A DNA stretch of 63,931 bases, the filler included, from Phoronis australis (Eukaryota; Animalia; Phoronida), in the NCBI GenBank assembly GCA_002633005.1. It is 5 parts of 5 records of this genome, joined end to end, with 100 filler letters (N's around TTAATTAATTAA, not from the genome) between each part and the next. Parts side by side here need not be neighbours in the genome. Positions count along the whole stretch, not along the records: positions 1 to 25,197 come from NMRA01000248.1; 4 more parts are not named here. One strand, given 5' to 3'. Below are positions 2,746-23,397 of this stretch, piece by piece. The position numbers and the translations under genes were made by a program. The notes under the pieces are model-generated. The model did not search any database and was not told the origin of the DNA. It worked only from the letters and a program-made list of their open reading frames with translations. Each line of letters opens with the position of its first letter. Within the stretch, counting starts at the first letter, position 1.

Positions 2746-3844
2746 ATTTCTCTCATAGAGTTTGGCCATTTAAAAAATGTTTGTTATCACGTCTCGTTAT
2801 GAAACTTGTAGCGACGAGCCAAAATTGCACTGATTGTTAAGCTGCCGGTTGCTAATTCTTGAGTAACTACTATTGTGATAGATCGTAATATGAGGATATG
2901 CACTTACGCTACTGATAATTGCGTAACATTACTATTGTGACAGATTCTAAACGGAGTGTACATGTATGTGCTGAAACCACTTTCCAGTTAAATAATCATC
3001 AGGTCTTTGGATGGATTGGAATTAAGTGCTATCATTAATGCAATGGCACTCAACCGACTCTGTTACAATACTTCTTGTAAGATGTATAACGAGTAATATT
3101 AAAAAATGGCGTGAATTTGCATGGTCTCATTGTGTTAAAAGACGACCAGATTTCCGACCCAACTGCTAACGGCATTGGCCTCCGAGGTAACGACTCCTAA
3201 CAAACCGTTTTATTTTTGGTCGGAGTCAGCTAGATGGCAGGTCGCTGAATCCTTGACGACCACGAAAAAGGTTTGTATTGCACGTGAAAAAAGCAGCAAA
3301 ACGCCAATGGTGAATCAAACATGTATCACACATAAAAAACTAGAAAGCAATAGCTGACATATGATCGACTTCTAATCAGCAATAACTTGGAAAATTTGGC
3401 CTAAGTGTCAAACGACTGAATGAACTGGCGAGTCATAGTGTGTTGTGCTGTGCCTGAAAAGACAAAATACGTAGCATGAAAACCTAGCGTATACGTAGTC
3501 TAGGAACTTTTCGCTCGCAAGGTGGCACTCTGGCTCACGTTTCAATCAAAATACGATATCCTGATTCCAAAAGTAACCAAACTAGCTAGAGCTTGAAAAT
3601 TTAGGCTCCTCCAATTGTTTCAAGCGAGGAAAAATGAATATAACATCCCCGAAATCTCTCTAAGGTGACACACCAAATACGAGCTAAGCACCTCTGAGGC
3701 CACTCGGGTAGAAAGCCAATTATACATGTTGTCATAAAAGAAAATTACGGATAAAGGAGCCGAAAACAAGCACACATCAATTAAATTTTGCGGTAGTCGT
3801 TGAGCAACGAGCAATTACCACAATCACTTCTCGAAGAAACTTAC

Positions 3845-3976
3845 GAAGTTGGTAATAAGTTATTATCTGGTGGATCTTATGTTTTTCGCGGTCCGGAATA
3901 CGCCCTGTTCAGCTATGATCTCAAACATATTGGCTTGGCTAAAGTACAGACGTATCCACTACGAGTACAACAGGTT
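3845..3976 (-). pseudogene. PTP relic exon (P-loop RSG and VFRT region)
   Basis: tttcag|A ACC TGT TGT ACT CGT AGT GGA TAC GTC TGT = TCCTRSGYVC; after a frameshift ANMFEIIAEQGVFRTAKNIRSTR**LITNF|gtaagt. Confidence 0.75.
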
Positions 3977-21100: not shown

Positions 21101-23397
21101 CTTACATCAGTATTCTCAAAAAAGACTCCGTAAAGAAACTTGTAGAGATATCCAGAGTCTAGCTCCACGTTCATGTAACCACCATAGTATTCCCCATCAC
21201 CAACTACAAAGTCGACACCATCTTCTACGAAATCTGCTGTCAGCTTTGCCGCTATATAAAGTGGCTCCTGATTTCTCTGCGCTTCTGCATACCCTTTTAA
21301 CGACGATGCATCTACGACCACAGCTCGTCGTCGTTTAGAATGTTTTCTTCGAGTATTCACTACGATCATGTAGTACCTTTTGAGATACAAAAAAGGATTT
21401 TGATGTTGATTCAGGAAAGAACAAAGAGTTTGGAGAACAACGGTTGCCCAACAATGTCATGAATGGGGGATCGTCAAAGCAGGAACTAATAGGCTAAAAC
21501 CTCACTTGATATACACGCCCTTGGTATAACCACTTGCTGGCGTTAGACGTATTTTCACAGTTGTGTCAGTCATGTCTTCCTTGGTTATCATCTGCAGTGC
21601 TAGGTCCGGTAAATCTGAAACATAAGTGGAAAGGTATCATAACAACATTCTGAAATTTCAAGGTTTCGTTTTTTATGACACGGATCGACAATATGTAACA
21701 AGCAACTGATAATAACAAACTGATAACTCGCTACCAATAATATTGGTCTCCAATTCTTATAATAGAGAAACAAGAAGACAACACATGTCGCATTCGTGGC
21801 TAACAATCGTCCTTGATGCCTGAACGTAAGGTCCTGTGGTTGTGAGGCTCGTGTTGCTGAGTTTAAAGAAACGTCTCGTGACTGAAAGGGGATACAACCA
21901 TAGTTTTCAAATCACAACGTAATGAAAACTCATTATCGCACATATCTCGTGTCTCCTTACCTATAGAAATCCAATACTTTATTGCTTACCAATCAAATCC
22001 GTTAAATAGTGTTTGCCTACCTCCATACCACGACAGAAACAATGGGTTAATCAAAAACCCCATCGACCCCCACATTCCACGACCCTAGACCCAATACCCC
22101 ACGAACCACGGCATACAACACCTTCGACCCAAGACCTATGGAAATGGATACATTCTTGCACTTTATGTAATGACATTACTCAATTAGGTCGCTAAATGAC
22201 TTTTCCACAACTCTTCTTGATACCTATACGCAAATCTGCTTTGGCTCAAGTCTGGTGATAAAGAACATGATCTGAAATAGCGAATTGTGAACGTGGTATC
22301 GTTGTCAAGGAAAGATGTTCCACGAGCACCTACCAATGGCCCTGTTCTTCTAAATTATGGGAGAGAATACACTAACGTGAAGGCATTTAATTTTTAATTT
22401 TATTGTTTGCCTTCCGTTATATACTCGTCTATCATGTTCTTCATGTAATGTTCAGATATTTTTTTAGTTCTCAGTTCGTTCTTCGAACTGTATTTTCTAA
22501 AGAAATACTTCTTCGTCTGTTCCTCGCACTTCCCAACAAAAGCTTGAATATGCCAATCACTGAGAACCAGACAAGATGATAAAATTCTGTCAGCAACGGC
22601 ATTTGTAGCGTTGGTAGGTCTTTGATTTGATTTGGTCGCTTTGTTTTTGTCTGTTCCCTTGGCTTTGAGACTTTCCGAATCGTCTCCCTTAAGTGCAAAA
22701 CAAACAGGTAAAAACCAGCCGAGCTCACGGCCAGACTCGTTTATCCTGAAATTCAACGTCTGTTCCGAGTTCAAATCGAGTAGAACTTGTGTAGACTGTT
22801 TCGAAGAGTTGTGGGCCGTGTGTCGAGGTTGTCGTGGGTTCAGGGTGTCGATTGGGTTTCAGTACAATCAGAAATATGGCCATTTGGTCCAATGGTTTAA
22901 CACTATAAGGAGTCGAACCAAATTGCCAACACTTGTAGTGGAAAAAATACGGGAACGTTGATACCTTAGAAATTTGTGAATCTATGACTTGGACAGTGTC
23001 TAACGATCTCGAGTTATGAAAATCTGTCCGACTCTCGGGCTGTGACAATTAATTTGCAGGTTACAATTTTGTTGTAGTCTAGAAAGTTTTACCCAAAGTA
23101 AAGGATTTCAGCCTTAGTTGTACAACTAAGAGTGCATTTTCTATGTTTTTTATTGAACAAAAACTATAGTAATATTCTGCCAATTAAACTGTCCTACTAA
23201 TGAGCACATTGGTAATAATTACCAGGCAAAGCTGTCCAGCAGACTGTAGTTGCCGGTGGTCCAAAGCCAACGGATGTTTTTGCCGCTACATGAACCTTGT
23301 ACGGTGTCCCAGGCTTCAGATTTGAAACCTCAAATTCCAAGATACTTGGTCCCACGGTTTTAGACAACAAACTCTCATCTCCGGTATTCCATGATAT
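9684..23397 (-). CDS. Receptor tyrosine kinase with Tie-family kinase domain and FN3/RPTP-like ectodomain (spliced, 5'-partial; 14 exons, 618 aa)
   Basis: Exons 23223-23397, 21506-21614, 21106-21376, 20200-20263, 19804-19909, 19289-19344, 18797-18873, 18278-18491, 14498-14608, 13259-13437, 12782-12966, 11726-11766, 11226-11322, 9684-9855. All have AG/GT boundaries and compatible phases, and they sum to 1857 nt with no internal stop. Motifs: [67 protein letters not shown], and a Tie-like C-tail. Confidence 0.93.
11226..11322 (-). CDS. RTK exon: kinase subdomain X
   Basis: [32 protein letters not shown]. Confidence 0.93.
11726..11766 (-). CDS. RTK exon: kinase subdomain IX
   Basis: [14 protein letters not shown]; 41-nt exon with ttccag acceptor and gtaag donor. 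Confidence 0.93.
12511..12662. repeat. 30-bp minisatellite, 5 copies, intronic
   Basis: Unit tttggtcatatttgaata(c/g)gtaagcaccta, head-to-tail with no spacers. Confidence 0.95.
12782..12966 (-). CDS. RTK exon: catalytic and activation loops
   Basis: [62 protein letters not shown]. Confidence 0.96.
13259..13437 (-). CDS. RTK exon: kinase subdomains V-VIa
   Basis: [22 protein letters not shown]...[24 protein letters not shown]. Confidence 0.92.
14498..14608 (-). CDS. RTK exon: kinase subdomains III-IV
   Basis: [37 protein letters not shown] (alphaC Glu, HPNIVxLxG). Confidence 0.92.
15050..15121. repeat. (CATA)n microsatellite
   Basis: acatacatac runs. Confidence 0.9.
15445..15745 (+). repeat. 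Dispersed intronic repeat, copy A (cgaccc microrepeats + conserved block)
   Basis: Aligns with 22060-22385 (ggctcaagtct..tatcgttgt..aatggccc..ggagaga..taacgtg). Confidence 0.7.
18278..18491 (-). CDS. RTK exon: kinase subdomains I-II
   Basis: ...[43 protein letters not shown]. Confidence 0.92.
18797..18873 (-). CDS. RTK exon: intracellular juxtamembrane 2
   Basis: [26 protein letters not shown]; acceptor tttttatttcag, donor gtatga; phases 1/0. Confidence 0.75.
19289..19344 (-). CDS. RTK exon: intracellular juxtamembrane 1
   Basis: [19 protein letters not shown]; acceptor attcag, donor gtatag; phases 2/1. Confidence 0.75.
19804..19909 (-). CDS. RTK exon: transmembrane helix
   Basis: [35 protein letters not shown]; hydrophobic stretch followed by basic stop-transfer residues; donor gtaagt. 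Confidence 0.9.
20200..20263 (-). CDS. RTK exon: extracellular juxtamembrane
   Basis: [21 protein letters not shown]; acceptor ttcgacag, donor gtaact; phase 0/1 bridges the flanking exons. Confidence 0.75.
21106..21376 (-). CDS. RTK exon: RPTP-like membrane-proximal domain with polybasic site
   Basis: [17 protein letters not shown]...PLYIAAKL...[28 protein letters not shown]; the YIAA / FxxGDxxxYxGYxNxxL signature of RPTP stalks. Confidence 0.88.
21506..21614 (-). CDS. RTK exon: start of membrane-proximal stalk domain
   Basis: [37 protein letters not shown]; acceptor tttcag, donor gtgagg; phases 1/2 fit both neighbours. Confidence 0.85.
22060..22385 (+). repeat. Dispersed intronic repeat, copy B
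   Basis: Aligns with 15445-15745. Confidence 0.7.
23223..23397 (-). CDS. RTK exon: second half of a fibronectin type III domain
   Basis: [60 protein letters not shown]3 pattern L-K-P-G-T-x-Y and A-x-T-x-x-G-x-G-P; acceptor tttag, donor gtaaat. Confidence 0.9.

Follow-up and report, generated by a model that had tools for sequence, protein, structure and literature searches.

We describe here a locus of the phoronid Phoronis australis (assembly GCA_002633005.1) where an intact receptor tyrosine kinase (RTK) gene is followed, on the same strand, by the decayed remains of a receptor protein tyrosine phosphatase (RPTP) gene. The window, i.e. the whole stretch of DNA that was analysed, is 63,931 nucleotides long and joins five parts end to end. 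All coordinates refer to this joined stretch; the locus lies on the first contig (1-25197), which is followed by a spacer at 25198-25297, and the GC content is about 39%. RTKs and RPTPs are the opposing arms of tyrosine signalling, and under either of the two principal readings that we weigh below, the locus shows the two families physically recombining.

The RTK gene was modelled on the minus strand as 14 exons with 618 codons and a stop at 9684. The frame is open throughout, and all 13 introns have AG/GT borders. The encoded order is an FN3 domain, an RPTP-type stalk, a transmembrane helix, a Tie-type kinase and the stop, as an earlier first-pass annotation of this DNA had proposed; both the open model and Pfam bear this out, with fn3, Fn3_PTPRU, PTP_tm and PK_Tyr_Ser-Thr detected on single exons. 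The model is 5'-partial: it begins within an FN3 domain, and the contig runs out at 25197. RNA reads, here and below, were matched at a 90% likeness cut, with 18-19% of each raw run read. The exons are as follows:

23223..23397, minus strand: exon 1, second half of the FN3 domain (Pfam fn3, E 2e-6); the gene runs off the contig
21506..21614, minus strand: exon 2, linker plus the first part of the stalk domain (6 RNA reads in run X5 and 13 in X6, with three differences in common)
21106..21376, minus strand: exon 3, RPTP-type membrane-proximal stalk (Fn3_PTPRU E 1.2e-7, PTP_tm E 0.0024; top Atlas matches PF23144)
20200..20263, minus strand: exon 4, end of the stalk (frame open, AG/GT; without supporting reads)
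19804..19909, minus strand: exon 5, transmembrane helix (hydrophobic stretch, then basic residues; RNA depth zero)
19344-19289 and 18873-18797, minus strand: exons 6 and 7, juxtamembrane (open model; RNA depth zero in four of four runs)
18491-18278, 14608-14498 and 13437-13259, minus strand: exons 8-10, kinase (PK_Tyr_Ser-Thr within exons 8-14)
12966-12782, 11766-11726, 11322-11226 and 9855-9684, minus strand: exons 11-14, kinase and stop (PK_Tyr_Ser-Thr within exons 8-14)

The kinase domain has no insert, its Gly loop, VAxK Lys, WMAPE and catalytic motifs are intact, and its activation loop contains a single Tyr. It shares the lack of an insert and the single Tyr with vertebrate TIE1 and TIE2 (TEK), and the catalytic-loop exon has TIE2 as its best natural match in PDB; the exon sizes of 111, 41 and 97, together with the fused 185 and 172, are ones that we take to fit those of TEK. 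Unlike the vertebrate receptors, the window RTK has an RPTP-type stalk and two small juxtamembrane exons; no Ig/EGF part is seen in the model, the 5' end of the gene being off the contig. Judged by its motifs, the protein would work as an ordinary single-pass RTK, with extracellular contact through FN3, a possible cut in the basic, furin-type run that stalk exon 3 contains, and dimer-driven phosphorylation of Tyr487 in the activation loop and Tyr608 in the tail. The latter sits in a YENI motif and may act as a docking site, in keeping with known SH2 preference.

A comparison of the juxtamembrane region did not separate RTK from RPTP ancestry for exons 6-7. Exon 7 (18797-18873) ends in EYES at phase 0, resembling the start of the LAR-type RPTP wedge in an alignment with PTPRS; the end lies one codon off the RPTP intron position, however, and the likeness may be chance. 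One kinase intron holds a 30-nt tandem repeat in about five copies (12510-12692).

Downstream of the kinase stop, we recognize one palindromic repeat and five relic exons of the two RPTP phosphatase domains, D1 and D2, where about ten decayed exons had been proposed:

9179..9377, no strand: imperfect palindrome of 199 nt, resembling a miniature inverted-repeat transposable element (self-match E 6e-17; fold z -5.0, 0 of 200 shuffles)
9030..9167, minus strand: last RPTP D1 exon, pseudo, frameshifted (AG and GT ends; overlooked by the first-pass annotation)
7669..7719, minus strand: D2 YINA pseudo-exon, shortened (0 of 100 shuffles; AG at 7719, GT after 7669)
4860..4991, minus strand: D2 QYxP pseudo-exon, frame still open (RNA match 4884-4956 with 6 differences in 73; the distant profile misses this exon)
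4451..4596, minus strand: D2 HFQ pseudo-exon with frameshifts, a nonsense codon and the His-Cys pair lost (2 of 100 shuffles; RNA match 4450-4507 with 7 differences in 58)
3845..3976, minus strand: D2 TRSG/VFRT pseudo-exon with a frameshift and two stops (1 of 100 shuffles; an RNA loose end at 4460 continues, by eye, into a relative)

The D2 part is the stronger of the two. The region was aligned, with splicing and frameshifts permitted, to a profile of four RPTP sequences in which introns could fall where RPTPs have them; the intron positions and penalties were chosen after the relics had been seen. The D2 chain scores 78.4, which none of 100 shuffles reaches, and the highest score among 13 real control stretches is 57; in an unconstrained spliced alignment, D2 scores 88 against at most 80 in the 13 controls. 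All five D2 motifs of the first-pass annotation are present and colinear (YINAV 7692, QYRP 4979, HFQ 4577, VMQR 4464 / TRSG 3966, VFRT 3901), the junctions it had proposed for the YINA, HFQ and TRSG/VFRT exons come out of the alignment as well, and the motif-bearing relic exons have AG and GT ends. Sliding segments taken one at a time are weak (best p 0.02-0.03), and the last D2 exon is not above chance in the profile test. Single p values are soft, because two low-p per-exon matches, 5997-5938 for the QYxP exon and 4269-4246 for the last D2 exon, fell at places that we did not accept.

More conventional searches were blank. Neither tblastn with RPTP-type proteins of corals, snails and bryozoans (13 in all; no PTP-domain match on the minus strand of 3500-9683) nor Pfam Y_phosphatase (no match in 8 relic stretches or in 18 read-through frames) detected the relics, and they have no matches in PDB, homologue or Atlas searches. 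The expected colinear phosphatase matches are found by the frameshift-tolerant profile and missed by protein searches. Candidates for the wedge exon (7946-7862) and the FIVTQ exon (about 7190-7030) are not above chance, at 149 and 124 of 200 shuffles.

The D2 relics have an expressed relative. A 1290-nt RNA contig matches both 4884-4956 and 4450-4507; the two matches are 134 letters apart in the RNA, where the window has about 116 exon bases, and loose RNA ends at 4460 and 4450 continue into a relative of the 3976 exon (compared by eye). The expressed relative preserves an open frame and the His-Cys pair, whereas in the window copy Gln-Arg stands in place of the pair, alongside deletions and a nonsense codon. 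Run X5, the richest in this relic-like phosphatase transcript, gives 13-17 reads at four listed positions of relic exons 4596-4451 and 4991-4860; only some of the relic exons were detected among the reads. With a chain score above all shuffles and a spliced, open RNA relative for two of them, the D2 relics are genuine pseudo-exons of an RPTP that has a living relative. At 7496-8161, stranded RNA depth (X5 2.79, X6 2.29) exceeds what the 51-nt YINA relic explains, and a further relic exon, perhaps 7946-7862, may lie there.

D1 fares differently: its last exon is where the RPTP fossil begins, and almost everything before that is missing. The exon at 9167-9030 stands out within 9683-7720 (0 of 200 shuffles there, 7 of 100 for the whole region). 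Taken together, D1 is at chance level in the spliced profile alignment (15 of 100), and the D1 WPD, HCS and VQTE exons were not found (133 and 173 of 200). The introns tested hold no trace of earlier D1 exons (55 and 184 of 200). The three D1 motifs cited originally all fail, as PWHD (9353) and VH-S (9272) sit within the palindrome and GEIF..VRQL (9030) begins, out of order, on the donor of the last D1 exon. Of the relic splice junctions claimed at the two catalytic motifs, that of D1 comes from the palindromic repeat, while that of D2 is recovered by the alignment. The fossil begins 516 nt past the kinase stop, or 317 nt without the palindrome, rather than about 300 nt. The palindrome has TA ends and one other copy in the window, a partial one at 15916-15993 (E 0.004, 65% alike); an apparent 30-nt inversion at 9264-9293 was dropped, as it is the other arm of the palindrome. 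On the sense strand of 9683-6200, only variant polyA hexamers occur, e.g. one at 9560.

For the kinase gene, RNA joints fit five of the six kinase introns, and the transmembrane and juxtamembrane exons have no depth. Few reads are at least 99% alike (7 of 510, 14 of 490 and 0 of 276), and 9 of the 17 codons touched by listed read differences change the residue; the kinase-matching RNA therefore derives from paralogs or diverged alleles. Expressed kinase transcripts match the gene from exon 8 onwards, and their likeness breaks off 4 nt beyond the stop. Bins at 18818-20149 have zero depth in four of four runs, and in X5 the bins of exons 1 and 3-7 have zero depth. Reads on exon 2 (6 in X5, 13 in X6) can be set beside those on kinase exons 8-9 (10/22 and 4/12) and those at phosphatase positions (17/12 and 15/5): small as these counts are, they suggest that exon-2 reads track the kinase rather than the phosphatase, i.e. 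that they come from other stalk-kinase transcripts. No RNA joint links exons 1-7 or the kinase to any relic, and the kinase and phosphatase contigs are separate records.

The combination of stalk and Tie-like kinase is not new; it is known in starfish, annotated merely as 'Tie-like'. The nearest relatives of the kinase are Tie-like proteins of echinoderms, molluscs and amphioxus (45-51% identity), and in trees without vertebrate TIE it groups with invertebrate Tie-like kinases apart from Ret, FGFR and Cad96 (splits 100/99 and 100/100). The two kinase trees had 47 and 21 rows, with near-duplicate and short matches excluded, and the stalk tree 25. Among the 120 listed of 850 kinase matches, 19 have the stalk, as detected with a profile made from RPTP stalks only, and all are from Patiria or Acanthaster. 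These starfish RTKs, described as 'angiopoietin-1 receptor-like' or 'Tie-1-like' (Patiria miniata, Acanthaster planci; e.g. P0119, XP_038066663.1), have FN3, PF23144 stalk, transmembrane segment and Tie-like kinase in common with the window gene. Vertebrate Tie, which lacks the stalk, had therefore been the wrong reference for comparison. The window kinase is 47-51% identical to those of the starfish but falls outside their 100/99 clade, and the basic run in its stalk is longer.

On the phosphatase side, tandem RPTPs with a PF23144 stalk (LAR/R2A and R2B-like, e.g. Montipora P0044 and Bulinus P0029) have the same stalk domain, and the relics keep their order of last D1 exon then D2, with matching splice phases. 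They differ in that the locus holds no coding PTP domain, given the frameshifts, stops and lost His-Cys pair, and that at least two D2 exons and most of D1 were not found. A stalk search gave 43 matches, of which 16 were scanned: five carry a PTP domain and none a kinase. Ectodomain likeness is about equal for a starfish RTK (36%, P0119, the best blastp match) and a coral RPTP (35%). A homologue search with the stalk gave no match, and a metagenome scan for a close paralog found none among the 80 loci kept (best 66%). Three RPTP-stalk proteins, P0012 (Rhinatrema), P0002 (Stylophora) and P0038, have sushi, CUB or tyrosinase partners and no detected PTP or kinase domain; P0002 and P0038 may be gene-model artefacts.

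How did the kinase and the fossil come together? The reading that we favour, with roughly even confidence, is that an intact Tie-like stalk-kinase gene lies with its 3' end against the decayed last third of an RPTP, joined by a deletion between neighbours. The kinase family would have gained its stalk before that, at its root, from an RPTP. Later, in a cluster where kinase and phosphatase receptor genes lay side by side, unequal crossover or a deletion would have brought two neighbours together, with the breakpoint no more than 317 non-repeat bases past the stop; the phosphatase neighbour would have lost its ectodomain, its transmembrane segment and almost the whole of D1, after which the orphaned RPTP exons would have decayed while the kinase frame was kept under selection, as the unbroken 618-codon frame beside repeatedly broken relics implies. 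The relics encode nothing. Stalk-bearing Tie-like kinases elsewhere (the 19 starfish matches; the brittle-star RTK P0174, Amphiura, gives a weak stalk match of different make) support this reading, and one deletion is enough for it, while replacement requires an insertion and a loss, one event more. Moreover, if both ends had shared a parent RPTP, the coding ectodomain should match its transcripts at least as well as the neutral relics do; the zero X5 depth on exons 1 and 3-7 despite relic coverage weighs against a shared parent, though as a lean only, given the cut, the share of reads and the small counts.

Several observations weigh against such a join. Likeness to expressed kinases is confined, cassette-like, to the stretch from exon 8 to 4 nt beyond the stop. 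Starfish RTK stalks lack the RPTP-type inserts that the stalk of the window gene has kept; on the RPTP-stalk profile, 12 starfish RTKs reach 59-87 and the window gene 91.7. In the trees, both kinase and stalk lie outside the starfish clade with no supported partner, so the fusion may be lineage-specific and recent; forcing the kinase into one clade with the starfish was not rejected (AU p 0.06). The read test rests on a 90% cut and on 18-19% of each raw run, and the expressed RPTP may be a sister of the relic parent rather than the parent itself. There is also no intact neighbouring RPTP or RTK gene within the 25-kb contig.

These points feed a reading closer to the phosphatase-to-kinase switch first proposed, which we consider possible but hold only tentatively: Tie-type exons 8-14 replaced the D1 exons of an RPTP in place, from the phase-0 intron 7 to the phase-0 intron before the last D1 exon, so that exons 1-7 and the relics would be two ends of one gene whose output flipped from phosphatase to kinase. 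If true, the switch would stand as a dated trace of a receptor whose output was turned round. Like the join of neighbours, it calls for a breakpoint no more than 317 bases from the stop. Strand and order agree with it, as do the gap of 317 non-repeat bases from the stop to the last D1 exon, the RPTP-type stalk inserts, the PTP domains in 5 of the 16 scanned stalk matches with no kinase among them, and divergences of relics and kinase from expressed relatives that are of similar order (rough, by eye). The sense strand of 9683-6200, 3484 bases after the stop, has no AATAAA or ATTAAA (12 lie on the other strand), as if the block had arrived with no 3' end of its own. What keeps the switch alive is this absent signal, the phase-0 borders and a likeness to expressed kinases that, cassette-like, is confined mainly to exons 8-14. 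It suffers from the silence of the phosphatase run on exons 1 and 3-7, the stalk-kinases that starfish already have, the need for two breakpoints and a loss, and the artefactual D1 motifs; nearly all of D1 is gone, and not its first half as had been proposed. What survives of the original proposal is the RPTP fossil, the RPTP-type stalk and a kinase stop that lies very close to an internal RPTP exon. A common parent gene of ectodomain and relics gets no support from the trees, which place the kinase with Tie-like kinases, and the read depth leans against it.

Two further explanations seem much less probable. An assembly mis-join of the RTK locus to an unrelated RPTP pseudogene at the palindrome is improbable: a dispersed repeat does lie exactly between the stop and the first relic, and contigs are short, but the repeat is only 199 nt long, its single other copy in the window is 65% alike, and four DNA runs of one sample contain 51-82% of the words of 3600-13500 (the junction itself falls outside this test). 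Least credible of all is a single gene with alternative kinase and phosphatase 3' ends on a shared ectodomain, the phosphatase branch having been lost in the window copy. Its layout is compatible and the relic splice sites are largely kept, but most of D1 is absent and no RNA joint runs from exons 1-7 or the kinase to the relics.

The stalks of P0174, P0119 and the window gene (21106-21376) are of three different builds, all on Tie-like kinases; they hint at repeated capture of RPTP ectodomains. A broader version, in which Tie-like kinases repeatedly make such captures by in-place replacement of D1 and the window keeps the fossil tail of a replaced phosphatase, is one we would put forward with reserve. 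The openly accessible literature that we searched, outside subscription journals and supplements, yielded no description of stalk-bearing Tie-like kinases, of their origin or of an RPTP-to-RTK switch. The accessible part of a study of R3 RPTP evolution and FN3 exon phases mentions no kinase fusions (PMC5336234), that of another reports lineage-specific Tie duplications in sea squirt and/or amphioxus (PMC4898815), and an excerpt of a third cites work on amphioxus kinase expansion (PMC8662651).

Elsewhere in the window, a long open reading frame (ORF) on another contig (60610-61713, plus strand) has a signal-peptide-like start, many Cys and Asn-X-Ser/Thr sites, and no Pfam match. Two more plus-strand ORFs, at 42339-42836 and 55093-55836, have no Pfam match at 1e-3; they look like retroelement fragments, GIY-YIG-like and LINE-tail-like.

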